In this document: positions 12,469 to 48,494 of the stretch, piece after piece
How the letters are laid out: every line of letters starts with the position of its first letter
Position numbering within the stretch: the first letter of the stretch is position 1
Origin: Escherichia phage haarsle
Sequence record: NC_049828.1
Strand: one strand, 5' to 3'
DNA: 48,613 nucleotides
Made by a program: the position numbers and the translations under genes
The notes under the pieces: model-generated
The model's database searches: none
Told to the model about the DNA's origin: nothing
The model's input: only the letters and a program-made list of their open reading frames with translations

Positions 12469-12488
12469 CGTTTAACAAAAAATGCTAT
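12469..12488 (-). promoter_or_regulatory. Reverse-oriented module copy M1 (ATAGCATTTTTTGTTAAACG on the minus strand) inside the rightward head operon
   Basis: 20-mer present without the canonical 22-bp spacing; may instead contribute TTGCAC-16-TATCAT plus-strand promoter for the capsid gene. Confidence 0.45.
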
Positions 12489-12534
12489 CATTGGTCCGTT
12501 ACATACTAACGACCTTTATATATGGAGGAAGAAA

Positions 12535-16204: not shown

Positions 16205-16248
16205 ATGCTACACGATTCATAATCAATTCTTTTAACAAAAAGTGCTAT
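16205..16248 (-). promoter_or_regulatory. Reverse-oriented module M2 (antisense to the tail operon), -10-like TAGCAT
   Basis: 20-mer at 16229-16248 in minus orientation with a 22-bp spacer; would transcribe antisense into the major tail gene. Confidence 0.45.
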
Positions 16249-16261
16249 CAAGGAGAAAGAA

Positions 16262-26814: not shown

Positions 26815-26857
26815 ACTATACACGATCCGACAAGCGGCGTTTAGCAAAAAGTGCTAT
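26815..26857 (-). promoter_or_regulatory. Promoter-like module M3 (variant ATAGCACTTTTTGCTAAAC, TATAGT)
   Basis: Minus-strand 20-mer at 26839-26857, 21-bp spacer, -10-like; drives the lipoprotein cassette. Confidence 0.55.
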
Positions 26858-26886
26858 TCTGTTCTTTTTGTTCTCGCGTGTTCTCA
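26858..26886. repeat. 3 direct TGTTCT repeats at ~10-bp phasing (26860-65, 26869-74, 26879-84)
   Basis: Read from the sequence; analogous to the left-end TGTTAT array. Confidence 0.55.
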
Positions 26887-35048: not shown

Positions 35049-35522
35049 TTAGCAATTAGTGCTTTCAGGTTTATACAGGAATCCGCCAGGCTCATAATCT
35101 GACATTCTTACCACTCGCAACATTTCACGCTTATCACATCTCTTTGTGAGCGGTTTGCCATTGGAATCAAATCGCAGGTCTGGGCGGCAGAATGATGCGC
35201 GATAGCCTTGACATCCATATTTTTTGTAATCGTTATGCACCTTTTGAGCGCCAGCGGCTGAAATCATACCGCGAACACGCCACTGATTTACAGTTTGCTG
35301 GCTAACGTTAAGACGTTTTGCCATTGCTGACACACTTCCGTAATACTCAATAAGGATGTCAAGACGTGCTTTTAGTCCGGCGCGCACTTCATCTTTTAGT
35401 ACATAATATCCTGTAGGGCGCTTGCGTTTCTTCTTATCCTTGCCTCGTCTGGTTCCGTTATTGCCATTAATTGTGCGCTTGTCAATCTTGCCAGTTGATA
35501 CTGCGATTCGCTGTTCTTTCAT
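35049..35522 (-). CDS. helix-turn-helix DNA-binding protein (157 aa)
   Basis: HTH-like segment AMAKRLNVSQQTVNQW and basic N-terminus; RBS GGAG. Confidence 0.55.
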   Translation of the reverse strand: MKEQRIAVSTGKIDKRTINGNNGTRRGKDKKKRKRPTGYYVLKDEVRAGLKARLDILIEYYGSVSAMAKRLNVSQQTVNQWRVRGMISAAGAQKVHNDYKKYGCQGYRASFCRPDLRFDSNGKPLTKRCDKREMLRVVRMSDYEPGGFLYKPESTNC

Positions 35523-35534
35523 TACTCATTCTCC

Positions 35535-35578
35535 AATAGCATTTTTTGTTAAACGATGATTTAATGATTGTGTATTAT
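35535..35578 (+). promoter_or_regulatory. Promoter-like module P8 (ATAGCATTTTTTGTTAAACG, TATTAT) in the divergent region
   Basis: 20-mer at 35535-35554 with 21-22 bp spacer to a -10-like hexamer; upstream of the helicase gene. Confidence 0.5.
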
Positions 35579-41633: not shown

Positions 41634-42032
41634 ATGAGAAAGTTATCAATAATCGTGATCGCTGTTATTTTGTCTGGATGTTCAAGCGTTATGCCACTGA
41701 CCGGATTAATCGGTAGTAAGCCGGAAATCACAGCACAGGCAGGAGCGGAGAACGTAAAGCAGACCGTTGGCGTTACCGCAAAGCAGGACACCAGCACAAA
41801 ACAGGAAACTACAATAAAGGAATCTGCGGTTGATAAGGTGGACACTTCCAGCAAGAAGGATTTTACTACGTCAACCATTCAGGCTAACACCATCAAGGCT
41901 GATAAAATCCAGGTCGTGCAAGGTGGGCAAAGGAATTGGTACGATCCTATAATCTATTGCGCGGCAATTTTTAGTGGTCTTTTGTCAATGCTTTACTTTT
42001 CCTACCGCAAAGGCAACAAAAAGGAGGCTTAA
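41634..42032 (+). CDS. unimolecular spanin (132 aa; N-terminal lipoprotein signal LSGC plus C-terminal TM helix)
   Basis: Lipobox at the N-terminus and hydrophobic C-terminal segment, the architecture described for the T1 u-spanin. Confidence 0.7.
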   Translation: MRKLSIIVIAVILSGCSSVMPLTGLIGSKPEITAQAGAENVKQTVGVTAKQDTSTKQETTIKESAVDKVDTSSKKDFTTSTIQANTIKADKIQVVQGGQRNWYDPIIYCAAIFSGLLSMLYFSYRKGNKKEA

Positions 42033-42050
42033 CGCCTCCTTTGTTTTATA
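42022..42050. terminator. Bidirectional terminator (AGGAGGC ttaac GCCTCCT, TTGTTTTAT)
   Basis: Hairpin between the convergent spanin gene and the leftward block. Confidence 0.65.
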
Positions 42051-42267
42051 GTGAATCCATCAAATCTTGAAAGCTGTTTCCGCTATAATCATTCTCGACA
42101 AGAATGTAAGCACCTTTCTTCTTTATATCCCATAACATTTCATTGTATTCGTAACGATTTATTTCAAACGTGCTACCATCTTCTCTTGTCGCAGTTCCTT
42201 TGTCGTTGAAAACATCAAAAGTTACATTGATGATTTTTGTTTCTTTTTTTGTTACTTTGATAGCCAT
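42046..42267 (-). CDS. hypothetical protein (73 aa)
   Basis: Start at MAIKV with RBS GAGGA and the conserved leader. Confidence 0.55.
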   Translation of the reverse strand: MAIKVTKKETKIINVTFDVFNDKGTATREDGSTFEINRYEYNEMLWDIKKKGAYILVENDYSGNSFQDLMDSL

Positions 42268-42300
42268 TTTTAAAATCCTCATATTCGTTTCGATGAAACA

Positions 42301-42344
42301 AATATACCCGATACGAGATCGGGTGTTTTAACAAAAAGTGCTAT
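42301..42344 (-). promoter_or_regulatory. Promoter-like module M4 (dyad ACCCGATCTCGTATCGGGT containing GATC, TATATT)
   Basis: Minus-strand 20-mer at 42325-42344 overlapping the TAG stop; 22-bp spacer. Confidence 0.6.
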
Positions 42345-42535
42345 TCAATACGCTTTACAGTAACCAACAAAACTCCGTCCTCATCACACAAATTATGCTC
42401 TGATATATCAAACGCTCGCATGTCAGAATGAATGAGCGTTAACATTGCGTGCATGAAGTCGTCATGTGAGATTGAACTTACGGCGCAGAACTTCAATATT
42501 TTGTCTATTAGCATTTGACGTAAACAATTCTTCAT
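42341..42535 (-). CDS. hypothetical protein (start uncertain)
   Basis: ORF overlaps the 3' end of the upstream gene; no clear RBS. Confidence 0.3.
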   Translation of the reverse strand: MKNCLRQMLIDKILKFCAVSSISHDDFMHAMLTLIHSDMRAFDISEHNLCDEDGVLLVTVKRIE

Positions 42536-42854
42536 CGCTCATTTCTCCGATCCGTAAAACATCTCTTACCCATTCGTTTTGCATACCTTCCAGGCTGTAA
42601 AGTTCAAACGAGAAAGGGCGATTTGCTGATCCTTTCTTACACCAGAACTTTCCACCAACTCCATCAAGATAACCAGCGGTCATCATTCTTGCGCAAAATT
42701 CTTTTGAAACGGCAGTTGCAAACATCCTCGGAGTAAATCCTGCGGCCCTTGCGAGCCGCTCACATTCTCTGTGCTGAAAGATAAATTTTGCTATATGTTG
42801 ACGTGTAAACCATTCGAATGACTCACACCAGCGATACAGATCCAGAAGAAACAT
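42462..42854 (-). CDS. hypothetical protein (130 aa)
   Basis: ORF immediately downstream of the P-loop protein gene. Confidence 0.5.
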   Translation of the reverse strand: MFLLDLYRWCESFEWFTRQHIAKFIFQHRECERLARAAGFTPRMFATAVSKEFCARMMTAGYLDGVGGKFWCKKGSANRPFSFELYSLEGMQNEWVRDVLRIGEMSDEELFTSNANRQNIEVLRRKFNLT

Positions 42855-42856
42855 AA

Positions 42857-44440
42857 TTACCCCAGCAATGTTGGATTTACAAAAACAACGCCATTAATCA
42901 CACAAATATAATTTCTTTCTTCAAGCATCGGCAGCAGTTGCGTTTCCATACGCTTCATTACGCCAGCCTGGCCAACAAACGGCTTAACTTTTCGTGCAGC
43001 CTCATATATGGCGCGCACATTCAAGATCCCCTTGTTAGCCTTACCGTGTCGAGTGATGATCTCGATTAGTTTACCCATTTCAGCATCATCACCAGCATAG
43101 CCAGAAGCGTTGGCGGCGCTAATGTATGTTTTGCTCAACTCGCTAAACATCAGCAATGCTTCCTGAACGGTTTCAACCTCAATCTCTTTCGACTTCTGAG
43201 GGTATCCACCAGGATTAAACCAATTGCGGATAGTGTGCAAAACCGAAGCAATCCTGATCACCTGCTTATCCATTTTGCCAAGCGCACCTCGCAGCATTGT
43301 ATGCGAATACTTTCCGCCATCAGCAAGATGCGGTTCCATCTCCTGACGAGCCATGTTAAGCACTCGCATTGCGGATTTGCTGATCTTAAGCTGGATGCTT
43401 GATTCGCTCATGATGTTATGGATCAGCTTAAAATATTGGCTTTTCAGTTCTCCATCAACAGGTTCATAAGTCGAATCACCGTTATCATCAACAAATTTTC
43501 GACGACCTAAAAATGATTCTTCACGCACAAGCAAATAACGTTCACTCACACCGATACCGCGCGATCCTGCATCCATGATGGCATTAATTGTTTCATCCTG
43601 GGCAATTACTGCCATACAGCCAAGAGCTTTAAAACTCATGTTATTGTCTGCGTTTGCGCGAGCTATAGAAACATGACCGTGATCCCATGCTTTCAGCACA
43701 AGTTCGCTGTTGGTTTTACGTTCGCTATTTGCATATGTCAGACCTAAAAGGCTGTTAATACTCGTTGCCTCGTCTGAAATTACAGCAAAGTTACCCTGGC
43801 GATTGTTGATTCTTGCAAGTCCTTCAGGTGTGGTATCGGACACAGGGAAAACAATGTCACACATCTTTTCAAGTTTTTCTTCAAGATCTTCTTTCTCCTG
43901 GTATAGCGATTCCATATCAGCGCCAGATCGCTCGCTTTTCATCTCTTTTGCAAGACCTGCCAACTTTGCCTGAATCTTTTTCCGCTCCTTCTTTCGCTGA
44001 TCATTAATTCTTTCCACTTCAGCAACCATAGGAGCAAGAGCCAGGCTGTTAACGGCAGATTTACCAGTTGAAGGAGGCTGGCTTGTGACAACATAAAGAG
44101 CGGTTGGCTGATCCGTTCCGTGATACTCAACCGTGAATCGCCCAAGCATTGCAGCAGACACACAGCCGATAAAATGCATATATGCCGATGATTCAGGGAA
44201 TTGAACAGATCGAGCAATGTTTCGCGCCAACTTTCCAACAACATCAACATCATTGCCAAGAGAAATTACAGGGTAGCGATCGTTTCCGTTATTAACATCA
44301 TTAACCTCACCCCAAAAGCTGGACGATTGACGGTATCCGTTAGCCTGAATGGACACGCGCACCGGAGACAATCCTTGTGCATCAGCTAATTCGATAATTT
44401 GTTTTGGTGTTAGTTTATTGGTTTCAAACGAAAAATTCAT
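42857..44440 (-). CDS. P-loop NTPase-like protein of unknown function (527 aa; Walker A SQPPSTGKS)
   Basis: Start at MNFSFE with RBS AAAGGAG; Walker A read from the translation. Confidence 0.5.
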   Translation of the reverse strand: MNFSFETNKLTPKQIIELADAQGLSPVRVSIQANGYRQSSSFWGEVNDVNNGNDRYPVISLGNDVDVVGKLARNIARSVQFPESSAYMHFIGCVSAAMLGRFTVEYHGTDQPTALYVVTSQPPSTGKSAVNSLALAPMVAEVERINDQRKKERKKIQAKLAGLAKEMKSERSGADMESLYQEKEDLEEKLEKMCDIVFPVSDTTPEGLARINNRQGNFAVISDEATSINSLLGLTYANSERKTNSELVLKAWDHGHVSIARANADNNMSFKALGCMAVIAQDETINAIMDAGSRGIGVSERYLLVREESFLGRRKFVDDNGDSTYEPVDGELKSQYFKLIHNIMSESSIQLKISKSAMRVLNMARQEMEPHLADGGKYSHTMLRGALGKMDKQVIRIASVLHTIRNWFNPGGYPQKSKEIEVETVQEALLMFSELSKTYISAANASGYAGDDAEMGKLIEIITRHGKANKGILNVRAIYEAARKVKPFVGQAGVMKRMETQLLPMLEERNYICVINGVVFVNPTLLG

Positions 44441-44467
44441 TGATGATAACTCCTTTTTGATGCGGCA

Positions 44468-44511
44468 ATAATACCGCACCAATGCTACCCGCATTTAACA
44501 AAAAATGCTAT
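44468..44511 (-). promoter_or_regulatory. Promoter-like module M5 (ATAGCATTTTTTGTTAAATG, TATTAT)
   Basis: 20-mer at 44492-44511 overlapping the TAG stop at 44508-44510; 22-bp spacer. Confidence 0.55.
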
Positions 44512-44729
44512 TTTATCCGCTCTATGCTAACTAAGATTTTTTCTGGTTCCTTTGCACTATGGCAATGCGCGGTTACAGAATCAACAAAATCAAAGTAAAG
44601 TGATTTGTGATATGAGAATCCAATCAGCCACCCAACCATCGTTTTCTTTATTGGCCTGACTACATCGCCAGGCTTGAAGGTTTTTGTTGCTGAATAAGTC
44701 ACCTTATAGCGATATTCAGTCTTGATCAC
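44508..44729 (-). CDS. hypothetical protein (73 aa)
   Basis: ORF with coupled ATGA overlap. Confidence 0.5.
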   Translation of the reverse strand: MIKTEYRYKVTYSATKTFKPGDVVRPIKKTMVGWLIGFSYHKSLYFDFVDSVTAHCHSAKEPEKILVSIERIK

Positions 44730-45112
44730 TTATACATAGCCTCAAACAAATGACAGCCACCAGCGGAAAACCCTACTTCTTCGCGGTATAGCGTCCAGCG
44801 GTCGCCAGCTTCATCAAACACATAACCAGCAACAGCGCCAAGCGCGCGGCCTTGCTCAATCTGGTAGCGCTTTCCTTCTTTGAAATGCTTTTTACAAGGG
44901 ATCTTGTGATCTACAAAGGTGCATTTAATTGTTTTTGTCTTGATATGACGATAGTCAGACTCAACAGCGTTTTGCCACTTACTACCCTTTGTAATGCTCT
45001 TTACCTGGAATTGTTCCAACTCGATCACATCATCGCTACCAGCAATTTTTTCGTATACAGCTTTATAACGACCGTTCATCAAAACGTTGGTTTTATTGCA
45101 GATAACTTTCAT
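44726..45112 (-). CDS. hypothetical protein (128 aa)
   Basis: RBS AAGGAGAAATAA; downstream of module M6. Confidence 0.55.
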   Translation of the reverse strand: MKVICNKTNVLMNGRYKAVYEKIAGSDDVIELEQFQVKSITKGSKWQNAVESDYRHIKTKTIKCTFVDHKIPCKKHFKEGKRYQIEQGRALGAVAGYVFDEAGDRWTLYREEVGFSAGGCHLFEAMYK

Positions 45113-45143
45113 CGTTTATTTCTCCTTTCGTTTCGGTGAAGTG

Positions 45144-45187
45144 ATTATGCCAGGCTTTTACACCTGGCTTTTAACAAAAAGTGCTAT
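45144..45187 (-). promoter_or_regulatory. Promoter-like module M6 (dyad GCCAGGTGTAAAAGCCTGGC, CATAAT)
   Basis: 20-mer at 45168-45187 overlapping the TAG stop of the cytosine methyltransferase gene; dyad nearly identical to that of P1 and holds two CCWGG sites. Confidence 0.6.
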
Positions 45188-45894
45188 TTTGCGTTAGCTT
45201 CAAAGATTGCGCGAGCAAAACCGCGCGGTGTTAGGGAGCGGATCATCTTTGTACGAGATGATTTTCCGCCAGTTTTGGCCCAGCCAGGATTATCCTTGTC
45301 GTCCTCTTTCGGTAGGATCGTTGCGCGCGGAGGAATAACAAATCCGTTACCAGTCCAAAGGCATGTTTTCTTAAAGTACCGATCCCGCGCCGGAATAATA
45401 TCAGGGAAGTCGGGATGTTTATCATCTTCCGGCAGATAGCCAGCGTAATCGCACGGATGGAACGTATAATCAGGCTTACGCCATAACGTTGACAGCTTGC
45501 CTACAGGATTCTCTATCATGTAAGGAACACCGAAATAATCAGCGATATGCGCGGCTATTTTGCAAGTGTCGGCGGCCTCATTTTGGAAGTTAGGATTTTC
45601 CATGCGCTTTTTAGCCCAATGGCGAGATCCGCTGTTTGCTAATTGTGTGCAAGGTGGGAAGGCCATAATGAAATCAGGCTTACCCCAATTTTCAAGTTTT
45701 GCGGTATATTTGAATAGATCATCAATCCACACATTAACGTAAAAAATGTTATCATGGATTATGCGCACTGATTGGTAATCGCCGTGATCGGCATCATCGT
45801 AATTAAAGCAAATGCATTTATAACCAGCATCAGCCCAATCTTTAACAGCCTTACCAGATCCATCAAACAAAGAGAAAATTAAACCTTTATACAT
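45184..45894 (-). CDS. DNA (cytosine-5)-methyltransferase (236 aa)
   Basis: Motif I FDGSG, motif IV PPCTQ (Pro-Cys), motif VI ENV (MIENPVG). Confidence 0.7.
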   Translation of the reverse strand: MYKGLIFSLFDGSGKAVKDWADAGYKCICFNYDDADHGDYQSVRIIHDNIFYVNVWIDDLFKYTAKLENWGKPDFIMAFPPCTQLANSGSRHWAKKRMENPNFQNEAADTCKIAAHIADYFGVPYMIENPVGKLSTLWRKPDYTFHPCDYAGYLPEDDKHPDFPDIIPARDRYFKKTCLWTGNGFVIPPRATILPKEDDKDNPGWAKTGGKSSRTKMIRSLTPRGFARAIFEANAK

Positions 45895-45903
45895 TTCATC
45901 ACC

Positions 45904-46128
45904 TCAAAACGGAAAGCATCGCGGGCAGTTAGGATCAAAATTGCAGCCGCAATCATTGACAATCATAGTTGGATCTGCAAATGCAGCGCCGCATTCATGA
46001 TCCATATCCATTTCACCAAGCGCATCATCAAGCGTCCTGATCTTATATGCAACTTCAAGCGCTGCCTCTTTATTTAATCCGGCATCTTCAGCCATTTGCA
46101 GGCGCTCAAAAAATCCGTCCTGACTCAT
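45904..46128 (-). CDS. hypothetical protein with C-terminal Cys cluster CGCNFDPNCPRC (74 aa)
   Basis: RBS AAGGAGA; coupled to the upstream small ORF. Confidence 0.5.
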   Translation of the reverse strand: MSQDGFFERLQMAEDAGLNKEAALEVAYKIRTLDDALGEMDMDHECGAAFADPTMIVNDCGCNFDPNCPRCFPF

Positions 46129-46238
46129 TTCATAATCTCCTTTATAGCAACCAAAATAATAGCAAGACCAGCAGTGACAACAAAAAGACCAGCAAGGCCA
46201 ATCATCACTCCAAATAAAATATCAAGAAATTTCATCAT
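46125..46238 (-). CDS. small membrane protein (37 aa, single TM)
   Basis: RBS AAAGGTGA; hydrophobic MMKFLDILFGVMIGLAGLFVVTAGLAIILVAIKEIMK; ATGA overlap with the next gene. Confidence 0.35.
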   Translation of the reverse strand: MMKFLDILFGVMIGLAGLFVVTAGLAIILVAIKEIMK

Positions 46239-46246
46239 TATTATCA

Positions 46247-46285
46247 CCTTTATTTAAAGGGAGGCGAAAACCTCCCGTTTATTAA
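46247..46285 (-). terminator. Terminator-like hairpin (GGGAGG..CCTCCC)
   Basis: Stem-loop with a weak T-tract on the minus strand. Confidence 0.45.
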
Positions 46286-46513
46286 TTAGACAGCCTTCCA
46301 GCTTTCAATGAACATGCTGTTTTCTTCCAGCAGTTTAATCAATTCTTCGCGTGTATATTTGCGGATTTTACTACCAGGATGCGAGCCAACAACAAACACG
46401 CCTTTACCGCCTGTGATTGTTAACTGGTTGATTCCGCAAGATTTATCCATTTTCACAGCGACGCGGTGATGTGCATCAACAGTGTGCATGATGTTAGTTA
46501 CTTTAGCTTTCAT
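46286..46513 (-). CDS. hypothetical protein (75 aa)
   Basis: ORF with RBS GAGGA. Confidence 0.5.
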   Translation of the reverse strand: MKAKVTNIMHTVDAHHRVAVKMDKSCGINQLTITGGKGVFVVGSHPGSKIRKYTREELIKLLEENSMFIESWKAV

Positions 46514-46621
46514 TTAAATATCCTCAATTGAAATATGAATGACGTGGCGCTCTTTTTCCGTCGCCGCCGTAATGGTCATTTGCAACCGCTACCATCCAGG
46601 CATTTTTGAAAATAAATAGCC

Positions 46622-46834
46622 TCATTTCTTATTTTTCATCTTAAATTTATGGCCTGGAACACCAGCGCCAATATAGCCATCGTTGTATTCCATTAAATAA
46701 AGGTGAAGACCATTATCTGAAATTATATGAGGATCTTCTTTGAGATTTCCCATTAGTGGATATTCTTTTTCGCGCGTGAATCTCCAAGCTGAGTTATAAG
46801 TTTCTACGCATTTAAGTTTTAATTGCTTTGCCAT
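46622..46834 (-). CDS. hypothetical protein (70 aa)
   Basis: RBS GGAGG; TAATG overlap with the upstream gene. Confidence 0.5.
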   Translation of the reverse strand: MAKQLKLKCVETYNSAWRFTREKEYPLMGNLKEDPHIISDNGLHLYLMEYNDGYIGAGVPGHKFKMKNKK

Positions 46835-47031
46835 TAGATGACCTCCATGTATGTTTCAAAGCCATTTAACTTGAACATGCCGTTTTCACATTTGTGCACG
46901 TTCCAAGTTAGTCCTGAGTGGTACGCAACAATATCCTCAAGATCAATGGTGATGATAGCGCCTTTCTTAAAGATTCCTTTCTCGTGAGTGGTGTCACGCT
47001 GTACAACTTTAACATCAACCTGTGTTTCCAT
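46834..47031 (-). CDS. hypothetical protein (65 aa)
   Basis: Conserved leader and RBS GAGGATTTAAAA. Confidence 0.5.
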   Translation of the reverse strand: METQVDVKVVQRDTTHEKGIFKKGAIITIDLEDIVAYHSGLTWNVHKCENGMFKLNGFETYMEVI

Positions 47032-47062
47032 TTTTAAATCCTCGTTCGTTGTCGATGCGCTT

Positions 47063-47106
47063 AATATACCAATCAGAGGCGCATCGGTTTTAACAAAAAG
47101 TGCTAT
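47063..47106 (-). promoter_or_regulatory. Promoter-like module M7 (TATATT)
   Basis: 20-mer at 47087-47106 overlapping the TAG stop; 22-bp spacer with dyad CGATGCGC..GCGCATCG. Confidence 0.6.
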
Positions 47107-47393
47107 TCAACAACAGATCCAGTTAAAGAGATAAGCTGTCTTGTGATCTTGTGTCTGCGATACTGACGCGCAACAACCGGAAGATTTTCACCGCTCTGAT
47201 GACCGAAGCAGATCGGCAACTCATCCTCAAGAGAGCGGAAGCCGCCAAATTCAAGATCCCGCACTGGCCTTGATCGCCACGCTTCAATAAATCCGCGTTC
47301 GTCACGCGTGATATAGCGGTATATGTTCGGGAGGGGCAATTGTATCCCCTCAAAATCCACGGTATCGGTATAGCTGTAAAACTTAGAACTCAT
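47103..47393 (-). CDS. hypothetical protein (96 aa)
   Basis: Start at MSSKFY with RBS GGAG; the ORF track start at 47453 overlaps the upstream gene. Confidence 0.5.
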   Translation of the reverse strand: MSSKFYSYTDTVDFEGIQLPLPNIYRYITRDERGFIEAWRSRPVRDLEFGGFRSLEDELPICFGHQSGENLPVVARQYRRHKITRQLISLTGSVVE

Positions 47394-47535
47394 AATCAAC
47401 AACTCCAAATTCGTTAACAATTTGCGCCTTATAGAAGCCGCCATTTTTCGCAAGGTTGTAGCAGGCCGCTACAGTTTCAAATTCGCGCACTTCCGGCTGG
47501 CTGTTTTCGTGTTCCCAGGTAATCAGAGTAACCAT
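47383..47535 (-). CDS. small hypothetical protein (50 aa)
   Basis: Conserved leader and RBS GAGGATTTGAAA before the ATG; not in the ORF track because under 60 aa. Confidence 0.45.
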   Translation of the reverse strand: MVTLITWEHENSQPEVREFETVAACYNLAKNGGFYKAQIVNEFGVVDYEF

Positions 47536-47568
47536 TTTCAAATCCTCGCATTCGTTGTCGATGTGTGT

Positions 47569-47612
47569 AATGTACAGGAATACGAGGATTCAGTTTTAAC
47601 AAAAAGTGCTAT
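47569..47612 (-). promoter_or_regulatory. Promoter-like module M8 (TACATT)
   Basis: 20-mer at 47593-47612 abutting the TAA stop at 47613-47615; 22-bp spacer. Confidence 0.6.
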
Positions 47613-47879
47613 TTAGTCCAAGAGTTCGATTTCGCGCTCGCCAGTTAACGGATCTACAAGCCAGAATCCGAGCGCCTCGCCGTAAACACCGCCATAGAAT
47701 CCAAGCGCCGCCAGATCTTCACCTTTAACGAATACCAGATCCCCGCTACTGCTTACGTGAGACACGTTAACGATAACAGGAAAGGTGCGATCCTTAAATG
47801 CAGGCCGCAGGGCGTATCATCCGTTGTTGAGCAAACGGGCTTTGCGTTTCACTGGAATGGGTGCATTGATTCGCGCCAT
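47613..47879 (-). pseudogene. Gene interrupted by an in-frame TGA at codon 21 (47817-47819); uninterrupted product would be 88 aa
   Basis: Strong RBS AAGGAGAAATAAAA + ATG; same frame open before and after the TGA; gene ends at a canonical module junction. Confidence 0.5.
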
Positions 47880-47892
47880 TTTTATTTCTCCT

Positions 47893-48138
47893 TCATTGTT
47901 GATCGTGTTTAACTACCATCATAACATCACAGGACTCGTTAATGAATTTAGCCATACGTTTATCATCACCAGCAGGGATTAGCGCGTTAAACTCGCGCTT
48001 GCTACTGAATACCGTAACTTTATGAAACGATGCGAACGGCATCGACGGGAACTCGACTGTTTGCTTCAAGATCCGCAACCCCATCTTTTTGGCCCTTACC
48101 TGGGCCTCTGCAAGTTCAAAATCCATCTCATTAATCAT
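47893..48138 (-). CDS. hypothetical protein (81 aa)
   Basis: RBS GAGGAG; ATGA overlap with the upstream gene. Confidence 0.5.
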   Translation of the reverse strand: MINEMDFELAEAQVRAKKMGLRILKQTVEFPSMPFASFHKVTVFSSKREFNALIPAGDDKRMAKFINESCDVMMVVKHDQQ

Positions 48139-48407
48139 TTCTTGATCTCCTCAGCAATAAACTTCAATACCTGGCGCAAAAACACTTCGTTGTTGATGGT
48201 CGCTGGCAATTCTTCTTTCACTTCTTGCGGCAGATAGATATTGCCGTGCCAGGTCAAGCAATCGTAGTTGATACGATAAGAGCAGAGCCACTCGCAATCG
48301 TTATCTGCTTCCCAAATGCAGAGTTGCAGAACATCGCCAAAATCTTCAACAGTCAGATCCAGACCGTGACGCTTAGCGAAGTTGAAAGTGGTTTTACTGA
48401 TGTTCAT
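48135..48407 (-). CDS. hypothetical protein (90 aa)
   Basis: RBS CAGGAGA; first gene after module M9. Confidence 0.55.
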   Translation of the reverse strand: MNISKTTFNFAKRHGLDLTVEDFGDVLQLCIWEADNDCEWLCSYRINYDCLTWHGNIYLPQEVKEELPATINNEVFLRQVLKFIAEEIKK

Positions 48408-48442
48408 TTGCTATCTCCTGAGAGGTTCGTTTCGATGTGTGT

Positions 48443-48486
48443 AATGTACCCGATCAGGCGGATTCAGTTTTAACAAAAAGTGCTAT
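48443..48486 (-). promoter_or_regulatory. Promoter-like module M9 (TACATT; spacer contains GATC)
   Basis: 20-mer at 48467-48486; 22-bp spacer; leader CATCGAAACGAA. Confidence 0.6.
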
Positions 48487-48494
48487 TTCTCAAC

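Follow-up and report, generated by a model that had tools for sequence, protein, structure and literature searches.

Mobile regulatory cassettes of T4-type phages have been described under the name of promoter-early stem-loops, or PeSLs (Arbiol et al. 2010, PMC2839356; Comeau et al. 2014, PMC4122927). In phages phi1 and RB49, PeSLs are repeated cassettes, each made of an early promoter and a stem-loop, that lie between the stop codon of an upstream gene and the start codon of the gene downstream; they cluster among small ORFans, and cassettes of open reading frames (ORFs) are shuffled when copies recombine (PMC2839356). The PeSLs of phi1 follow the scheme TTGACA-17-CATAAT-N6-CATCGAAACGAGATACC..AGGAG. 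A related arrangement is considered here for a leftward block of genes at positions 42046-48407 of Escherichia phage haarsle (NC_049828.1), the complete 48,613-nt sequence of which was analysed and is referred to as the window. In this block, conserved promoter-like modules recur between small genes of an accessory kind and around a gene for a DUF3987 helicase.

The reading favoured here, with moderate confidence, is that the block forms the leftward non-structural arm of the genome, in which a conserved replication core is combined with a PeSL-like hyperplastic accessory region subject to module-mediated cassette shuffling. The main addition to a preliminary description of the same DNA, which had proposed a host-takeover or anti-defence region, is evidence for this shuffling and for a leader common to different phage families. 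In the open-access literature, no description of PeSL-like cassettes in T1-like phages or siphoviruses was found.

By gene order and sequence match, the window is a Hanrivervirus-like (T1-like) member of the Drexlerviridae. The whole of it is collinear with T1 and JakobBernoulli (Bas07), with rightward small genes, structural genes, recombination and replication genes and a lysis cassette preceding the leftward block at the right end; since this order follows that of T1, genes ST1-ST10 are the T1 counterpart of the block. Matches to the 6.4-kb sequence were obtained in 308 phage records, with Hanrivervirus phages (Drexlerviridae) at the top at 92-96% identity; aalborv matches it at 91.8% identity over 100% of its length, and JakobBernoulli at 96.4% over 89%.

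Putative promoter modules and proposed cassette exchange

Eighteen ORFs, numbered g1 to g18 by position and 16 of them shorter than 135 aa, occupy the minus strand at 42046-48407, which is 93% coding and holds about 438 nt of intergenic sequence in total; the GC skew is negative over the whole block, as leftward transcription would give. The dense leftward block of the preliminary description is thereby borne out, and its coordinates for a methyltransferase (45184-45894) and a 527-aa Walker-A protein (42857-44440) are correct, its counts of 17 genes and 14 below 135 aa being replaced by those of the recount. PHROG family matches were obtained for 15 of the 18 ORFs. In comparisons with aalborv and JLBYU26, 16 of the 18 show a ratio of nonsynonymous to synonymous substitution rates (dN/dS) of 0.00-0.36, the exceptions being g9 (0.67-0.94) and g5, which gives 1.40 against aalborv, on very few changes, and 0.08 against JLBYU26. 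On these grounds, the ORFs are real genes, mostly under purifying selection.

Module copies were counted as the 19-mer AATAGCACTTTTTGTTAAA at no more than three mismatches over the whole window. Sixteen copies were found where 0.04 would be expected by chance, six of them in the block. In the layout of a module, AATAGCACTTTTTGTTAAAAC is followed by a variable spacer of about 18 nt (sometimes a hairpin), a -10 box, six bases, the leader CATCGAAACGA, a Shine-Dalgarno (SD) sequence and ATG, and the -10-like hexamers are CATAAT, TATATT or TACATT. All block modules lie on the minus strand. M1 (42268-42345) contains its 19-mer at 42327-42345, the spacer hairpin ACCCGATctcgtATCGGGT, TATATT, the leader and an SD sequence. 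M2 (44441-44512; 19-mer at 44494-44512, with one mismatch) stands upstream of the helicase gene, and M3 (45113-45188; 19-mer at 45170-45188) combines the spacer hairpin GCCAGGtgtaaaaGCCTGGC, at -13.7 kcal/mol, with TGnCATAAT. The others are M4 (47032-47107; 19-mer at 47089-47107), M5 (47536-47613; 19-mer at 47595-47613) and M6 (48408-48487; 19-mer at 48469-48487), the last of which would be the first promoter of the arm. In M1, M2, M3 and M4, the stop codons of g2, g5, g7 and g14, respectively, are supplied by the TAG inside the 19-mer, while the TAA stop of g16 overlaps the first base of the M5 19-mer; each of the five internal modules thus begins at or inside the upstream stop codon and ends at the next ATG, which is also the span of a PeSL.

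Read from the module positions, the block comprises six transcription units of one to seven genes each: g18-g17-g16, g15-g14, g13-to-g7, g6-g5, g4-g3-g2 and g1. Start/stop overlaps are frequent between genes inside the units, and many genes are translationally coupled. Six modules for 18 genes do not agree with the claim that each gene has a module of its own, nor with the seven modules that had been counted; those found have their 19-mers at 42327, 44494, 45170, 47089, 47595 and 48469, and the other long gap, in which a seventh was looked for (46239-46285), holds a hairpin and TTTAAAT without a module. The 17-mer CGATGTGTGTAATGTAC, said to be common to three modules, occurs twice at no more than three mismatches, the third copy differing at four positions. 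Recent duplication of the modules, also proposed earlier, is not supported by their distribution. The same modules stand at orthologous positions in relatives, the 19-mer is kept in T1, Bas09, TLS, a Klebsiella phage and phiKP26, and the layout is family-wide in the Drexlerviridae; conservation from T1 to phiKP26 makes the 19-mer an old family feature and not the product of a recent duplication.

Across the window, 13 of the 16 copies are located in the replication region or in one of the two arms of small genes, none is sense-oriented in the structural block, and all stand in non-structural regions apart from two inverted ones. By analogy with PeSLs, the modules probably act as promoters, and an early timing is suggested by their kinship with the early promoters of phi1 together with the absence of sense copies from the structural block.

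Local blastn of the block against ten relatives supplied the breakpoints at which cassettes differ. B1.3 lacks exactly 47614-48431 (g18-g16), and KarlJaspers (Bas06) lacks exactly 47108-47531 (g15-g14). A single chimeric module stands at each of these junctions, with the upstream flank of one window module and the spacer, -10 box, leader and gene of the next, and the junction alignments place the crossover inside the conserved 19-mer, within AAATAGCACTTTTTGTTAAAAC. The modules involved are M6 and M5 for the g18-g16 gap of B1.3, and M5 and M4 for the g15-g14 gap of KarlJaspers. Additionally, JakobBernoulli, aaroes and JLBYU26 either lack the g1 cassette or carry another in its place, and the breakpoints, 42339 and 42284, fall within M1; homologues of g15 and g16 are found on the opposite arm in Bas09 and T1.

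According to the favoured reading, each of the six units would begin with a family-wide module butted onto the stop codon of the preceding gene. The two promoter-distal units g6-g5 and g4-g3-g2 would form the conserved core around a DUF3987 replicative helicase, and the last unit, the single gene g1, would again be a variable cassette. Homologous recombination between module copies would, in the manner of PeSLs, add, remove and exchange the promoter-proximal small genes cassette by cassette. In the slot of g11 and g12, the replacement of genes would be a separate event that does not use the modules; in JakobBernoulli, pSf-1 and aaroes, a gene of 282 nt takes this place (its annotation in JakobBernoulli is 'putative homing endonuclease'), and KarlJaspers has a hypothetical gene of 234 nt there.

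The likeness to the PeSLs of phi1 is literal for the -10 box and the 17-nt leader CATCGAAACGAGATACC, and it extends to the concentration of copies in regions of small ORFs and to the exchange of whole ORF cassettes at the copies, as at the junctions in B1.3, KarlJaspers and JakobBernoulli/aaroes. In some T1-like modules, too, a stem-loop separates the -35 region from the -10 box, with strong hairpins in about one third. Unlike PeSLs, the T1-like modules carry the strictly conserved 19-mer instead of an AT-rich tract and TTGACA. Folding at <= -4 kcal/mol was observed for 19 of 48 family modules (40%), compared with 19% of random 26-mers from the window. A spacer hairpin was also considered as a universal feature of the module and rejected, such hairpins occurring in a minority of modules only (about one third family-wide). 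The T1 record annotates several of these spacer hairpins as terminators.

In phi1, a 3.5-kb stretch beside the alt gene (L008, 973-4512) contains homologues of g1, g7 and g18, surrounded by PeSLs that carry the module leader. In IMG/VR, the exact sequence CATCGAAACGAGATACC occurs on 14 contigs, which include two viral ones of about 230 kb (L015 and L018) besides T1-like contigs of about 50 kb.

Other copies of the module have features of their own. At 1195, 1658 and 45170, and in relatives, the motif CC(A/T)GGCATAAT constitutes TGnCATAAT, an extended -10 box, and holds a Dcm/EcoRII site, CCWGG, beside it. The two inverted 19-mers, at 12471-12489 and 16231-16249 on the minus strand, lie in intergenic gaps of the plus-strand late region, and they recur at orthologous sites in JakobBernoulli and T1, one upstream of the major head gene and the other between the terminator of the major tail gene and the next gene; the copy at 16231 abuts the SD sequence and ATG of a plus-strand gene. 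These inverted copies hint that the 19-mer may be a protein-binding site with a role at late genes as well. Near another module, at 35535, a divergent gene on the minus strand (35049-35522) encodes a 157-aa protein with a Cro/YdaS-like helix-turn-helix (HTH; ...AMAKRLNVSQQTVNQWRVRG...), an orthologue of T1 gp23, 'transcriptional regulator'. In mid-genome, a module with its 19-mer at 26840-26858 on the minus strand precedes a minus-strand ORF that begins MKKLIAVIATV and has a lipoprotein-like signal, at the position of the T1 superinfection-exclusion gene Cor.

The conserved core around a DUF3987 helicase

The DUF3987 family has been proposed to comprise SF6 replicative helicases of phages and mobile elements (Kazlauskas et al. 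2016, PMC4889955), and one PriCT-DUF3987 protein, AgaPH, unwinds DNA in the 5'-3' direction (PMC11724360). The largest gene of the block, g4 (42857-44440, like all block genes on the minus strand), encodes a 527-aa helicase of this SF6-type family, assigned to phrog_2373 ('DNA helicase'). Its match to PF13148 reaches 149.7 bits against a cut-off of 27 over residues 82-431, and its translation contains the Walker A motif PPSTGKS and the Walker B motif VISDE; a sequence search of the PDB detected no solved relative. As in phages with DUF3987/SF6 helicases, a separate primase gene is present, here about 8 kb away on the same strand, and g4 differs from such helicases in having neither a PriCT domain nor a primase fusion.

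Presence and absence of each family were scored in five distant Drexlerviridae. The families of g3, g4 and g6 are found in all five and that of g2 in four, and g4 is flanked by g3 and g6 in all five and by g2 in four. Among the matches listed, g4 is also the only part of the block common to most of about 1,200 distantly matching records. As a DUF3987 helicase that belongs to the core of the whole family, g4 is probably a replication gene; since g3, g2 and g6 are kept alongside it throughout the Drexlerviridae compared, or nearly so, some 40% of the block can be regarded as a replication-associated core.

The neighbours of g4 are small. The gene g3 (42462-42854; 130 aa, basic, phrog_2794) lies directly downstream of the helicase gene in every member of the Drexlerviridae compared and is restricted to this family. 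A fusion of g3 to helicases elsewhere was looked for with phmmer against 1.84 billion representatives and rejected, the search having returned 24 small relatives and no fusion. The gene g2 (42341-42535; 64 aa, phrog_9539) occurs in T1, TLS, Bas09 and the Klebsiella phage, has no match in phiKP26 and shows a dN/dS of 0.08-0.18; its homologue in T1 is present but unannotated. It overlaps the last 74 nt of g3 (42462-42535) in the +1 frame, and both frames are kept in T1, TLS, Bas09 and the Klebsiella phage.

On the other side of g4, g5 (44508-44729; 73 aa, phrog_12725) has a GTG start that overlaps the stop codon of g6 (GTGA), and g6 (44726-45112; 128 aa, basic, phrog_2684) is present in T1, TLS, Bas09, the Klebsiella phage and phiKP26, its family being restricted to contigs of about 50 kb. 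A 'cytidine deaminase' is named for the corresponding part of T1-like genomes in a paper on phage KanT1. Of g3 and g6, both considered as such an enzyme, g6 was rejected, its family alignment containing one invariant Cys and one invariant His and no HxE/PCxxC pair or deaminase zinc motif.

The same core is found in T1 genes 1-10, the leftward block at the right end of NC_005833, which has the same position after the lysis cassette and the same orientation; ST10, ST9 and ST7 correspond to g3, g4 and g6, and modules stand upstream of ST9 and ST7. T1 differs in lacking the C5-methyltransferase gene, the Gp54-family gene and g11-g18, instead of which it carries an HNH endonuclease gene and other small ORFs.

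Where the block converges with the plus-strand spanin gene, beyond g1, the G+C-rich hairpin AAAGGAGGCttaacGCCTCCTTT (42020-42042) is likely a bidirectional terminator that closes the block, and the T1 record carries an annotated terminator at the same junction. RNA genes were not found by Rfam and tRNA scans. Synonymous divergence between the block and aalborv ranges from 0 (g1 and g2) to more than 2 (g10) between the same two genomes, and this unevenness indicates a recombination mosaic within the arm. This enterobacterial T1-like block is carried, at about 91% identity, by 20-23 records labelled 'Campylobacter phage' (host C. jejuni), such as MG065670, which are probably mislabelled or contaminant genomes.

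Accessory genes and the anti-defence question

Ten of the 18 ORFs (g1, g9 and g11-g18) are missing from at least three of the five distant Drexlerviridae. Among the genes upstream of the core, two can be assigned to families of known function. The first, g7 (45184-45894, 236 aa), is supported as an orphan C5-cytosine DNA methyltransferase by its predicted fold and catalytic motifs, in agreement with the preliminary description; it is absent from T1 and phiKP26 and has the homologue ORF189 in phi1. Motifs I (FDGSG), IV (PPC, with Cys82) and VI (ENP) are present, and G12-S13-G14, P81-C82 and E128-N129-P130 are invariant in 25 homologues. Against PF00145, g7 scores 11.4 bits, below the threshold of 22, so there is no Pfam match at the default cut-off; in its family, the profile matches 14 of 25 members at E up to 1, the best at 1.2e-5. 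A sequence search of the PDB gave no matches. The AlphaFold model (pLDDT 89.6) retrieves from the PDB, as its top 45 Foldseek matches, the catalytic domains of DNMT3A/3B and the prophage C5-methylase 3g7u, at E 2e-6 to 7e-5 and a TM of about 0.5.

In its AdoMet-methyltransferase fold, its motifs I, IV (PC) and VI (ENx) and the lack of an adjacent restriction enzyme, g7 resembles the orphan Dcm-like C5 methyltransferases of virulent phages, from which it differs in being very short, with a minimal target-recognition region and the sub-threshold PF00145 score. Presumably, g7 methylates the DNA of the phage itself against restriction. The BASEL study reported most Drexlerviridae to be very restriction-sensitive and methyltransferase genes not to be linked to resistance (PMC8594841), and such sensitivity whatever the methyltransferase content argues against a simple protective role for g7.

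The second, g13 (46834-47031), encodes a 65-aa protein of the Gp54 family, to which a trigger of CapRelSJ46 belongs. Gp54 of Bas11 is a non-essential protein that directly activates the toxin-antitoxin defence CapRelSJ46, as its second known trigger; in Gp54, either of the substitutions A7V and I25V suffices to remove most of the activation, and CapRelSJ46 did not respond to four further homologues (Zhang et al. 2024, PMC11578894). Over its full length, g13 matches PF25180, 'phage antiviral trigger protein Gp54', at 128 bits (cut-off 27), and it matches the solved structure of Bas11 Gp54 (PDB 9axb) at E 5.5e-16 with about 50% identity. The two proteins are alike in their small size and, in T1-like phages, in their genomic neighbourhood. 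Of A7, G24 and I25 of Bas11 Gp54, on which CapRelSJ46 activation depends, g13 keeps G24 and has V7 and A25 in place of the other two; given the effect of A7V and I25V, g13 would not be expected to trigger CapRelSJ46.

The remaining genes are small and mostly belong to unnamed families. At the promoter-distal end, g1 (42046-42267; 73 aa, phrog_10679) has the phi1 homologue ORF185. Its ORF is open to 42282, and the start is most likely at 42267 because the upstream ATG sits inside the conserved leader. Beside the methyltransferase gene, g8 (45904-46128; 74 aa, acidic, with a C-terminal Cys cluster, phrog_9323) occurs in T1, TLS, Bas09 and the Klebsiella phage. It is coupled through an ATGA overlap to g9 (46125-46238), a 37-aa hydrophobic ORF (GRAVY 1.86) that is fast-evolving and found in close relatives only; the pairing of a 37-aa hydrophobic ORF with a Cys-rich one at 45904-46238 had been recognized before and is read here in the same way. 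Acidic DNA mimics were considered among the block ORFs and rejected, none being extreme; the most acidic is g8, with a pI of 4.1. Between g10 and g9, in the third transcription unit, the minus-strand hairpin GGGAGGttttcgCCTCCC followed by TTTAAAT (46259-46276) is a candidate attenuator. Further upstream are g10 (46286-46513; 75 aa, phrog_4344), present in T1 (ST5), TLS, Bas09 and the Klebsiella phage, g11 (46524-46625; 33 aa, phrog_32259), confined to close relatives, and g12 (46622-46834; 70 aa), which shares with g11 the slot that holds other genes in relatives.

In the units nearest to the first module, g14 (47103-47393; 96 aa, phrog_1972) is absent from KarlJaspers, and g15 (47383-47535; 50 aa, DUF7170) has its Bas09 homologue on the opposite, rightward arm. 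The gene g16 (47613-47879; 88 codons), the T1 homologue of which is on the other arm, is interrupted by TGA at codon 21. This in-frame TGA at 47817-47819, noted earlier, is confirmed; relatives have TGT (Cys) at the codon, and the dN/dS of the gene is 0.18. By comparison with relatives, the TGA is read as a recent plain nonsense mutation in a dispensable gene. Upstream of it, g17 (47893-48138, 81 aa) has no family match and is found in four close relatives, namely JakobBernoulli and aalborv (as protein) and pSf-1 and aaroes (as DNA homology). The first gene of the arm, g18 (48135-48407; 90 aa, phrog_6147), has a confident RWD-like alpha/beta model, the phi1 homologue ORF194 and homologues on contigs of about 50, 148 and 165 kb; a Foldseek search of the PDB with its model gave no significant match.

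Searches for anti-defence functions were largely blank. NCBIfam returned nothing for ten block proteins, PADLOC gave sub-threshold noise only (JetC coiled-coil, DruM and MTase_II, E about 0.005), Pfam gave the block ORFs no defence-interaction match besides Gp54, and no block ORF resembled characterised anti-defence inhibitors by sequence or fold in the searches run. Likewise, DefenseFinder had found no anti-defence system in one T1-like genome (PMC13164509), and the open-access literature yielded nothing usable on accessory-gene screens covering T1-like phages or on SECphi27 escape mutants in these genes. The methyltransferase, the Gp54-family protein and the variable small ORFs could plausibly serve in anti-defence, and the unnamed small proteins may have host-directed or anti-defence roles.

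Competing readings and their consequences

Several points weigh against the favoured reading, in which the modules are early promoters and sites of cassette exchange. With a canonical sigma-70 scan, no module is detected, and the number of hits does not exceed that in shuffled sequence. TTGTTA and TTAAAA lie 22 bp and 19 bp from the -10 box, outside the consensus sigma-70 spacing of 16-18 bp, and the 19-mer is conserved beyond what a -35 or UP element needs. Strong spacer hairpins (z <= -3.7) occur in two of the six block modules, M1 and M3; with strong hairpins in a minority, the stem-loop half of the PeSL definition applies only in part. An open-access search found no literature on promoters, transcription start sites or timing for any T1-like phage, nor anything usable on the 19-mer or on transcriptomics and promoters of the Drexlerviridae. 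The breakpoints of the g11-g12 replacement, at 46514 and 46898 (inside g13), lie away from the modules. Finally, the recombination evidence consists of three junctions in a handful of genomes, in which gain and loss of a cassette are not told apart, and, given that any repeat of this length would recombine, the term 'mobile cassette' may overstate a passive effect.

Alternatively, the 19-mer could be mainly an operator for a phage-encoded DNA-binding protein that switches the non-structural genes in time, with module recombination as a passive by-product. Such an explanation is possible, though clearly less probable than the favoured one. It would suit the contrast between a variable spacer and -10 box and a 19-mer that is nearly invariant from T1 to Klebsiella and Rogunavirus phages, the non-canonical spacing of this 19-mer from the -10 box, the inverted copies at conserved intergenic sites upstream of late genes in the window, JakobBernoulli and T1, and the encoding of an HTH protein divergently from one module, this 157-aa orthologue of T1 gp23 (35049-35522) being the candidate binder. 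The 19-mer has no dyad symmetry, however, and phi1 cassettes work with plain TTGACA in its place (PMC2839356), so that leader and -10 box suffice for a promoter in phi1; the cassette-exchange junctions are compatible with an operator as well and raise no conflict. Quite improbable, by comparison, is an ordinary polycistronic early region in which the repeats are merely similar sigma-70 promoters and the TGA of g16 stems from a sequencing error or is read through. In phages with compact genomes, promoters for the host polymerase are often alike, the genes are annotated as hypothetical proteins in hundreds of deposited genomes, and the TGA arises from a single-base difference, all of which would fit. 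Such a region would not lead one to expect a 19-mer that is conserved across subfamilies, fused to upstream stop codons and placed at exact cassette junctions, or a 17-nt leader identical in a T4-like phage; moreover, nothing in the context of the TGA suggests recoding, and Rfam is blank.

The proposal of the preliminary description, taken to its full extent, would make the whole block a dedicated host-takeover or anti-defence island, with most small ORFs being defence inhibitors or host-shutoff factors expressed immediately after injection. The small genes are indeed accessory, variable and under purifying selection, a methyltransferase is present in g7, the non-essential Bas11 Gp54 has been suggested by its authors to inhibit another defence (PMC11578894), g1, g7 and g18 are common with the unrelated T4-like phage phi1, and a nonsense allele is tolerated in g16. 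Against these observations stands the largest gene, g4, a probable replication helicase, which g2, g3, g5 and g6 accompany in most or all family members compared; homology to replication proteins, which the same description had named as evidence against its view, is thus found for g4 with DUF3987. The profile and structure searches it had proposed named g4, g7 and g13 and matched no anti-defence protein or fold: PADLOC, NCBIfam and Pfam are without defence matches apart from Gp54, and g18 has no significant Foldseek match in the PDB. The restriction sensitivity of most Drexlerviridae whatever their methyltransferase content (PMC8594841) and the blank DefenseFinder result in a T1-like genome (PMC13164509) point the same way. 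An island of this kind is therefore considered unlikely. The part of the proposal that stands concerns the promoter-proximal accessory genes, with the C5-methyltransferase and the Gp54-family gene among them; anti-defence screens would reasonably be limited to g1 and the promoter-proximal small genes and leave out the helicase core.

A more far-reaching idea is that the module serves as a cross-family platform for gene exchange between T1-like siphoviruses and Krischvirus (T4-like) myoviruses, integron-like in nature, and that its 19-mer is bound by a phage regulator that times the non-structural programme. The first half is prompted by the shared -10 box and leader and by at least three shared cassette genes, and the second by the hint from the inverted 19-mers that adjoin late genes; as a whole, the idea is speculative and rather doubtful. 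If it were true, small accessory genes, possibly including those for counter-defence, would be able to change place in a genome, pass from one of its arms to the other and cross between virulent coliphages that are unrelated.

Few coliphages are more common than the T1-like ones, which are represented in collections for therapy and in model collections, BASEL among them. Some two thirds of the genes of T1-like phages are 'hypothetical'. If, as in the favoured reading, the modules are units of expression and exchange, they would define where the accessory genome of the family lies and explain why close relatives differ by whole cassettes. They would also supply a rule for selecting host-interaction candidates, namely module-flanked ORFs that come and go, and offer engineers safe insertion sites with a built-in promoter. 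The leader common with the PeSLs of T4-like phages would carry a mechanism known only from myoviruses to siphoviruses, and it suggests a traffic of cassettes between the two groups.

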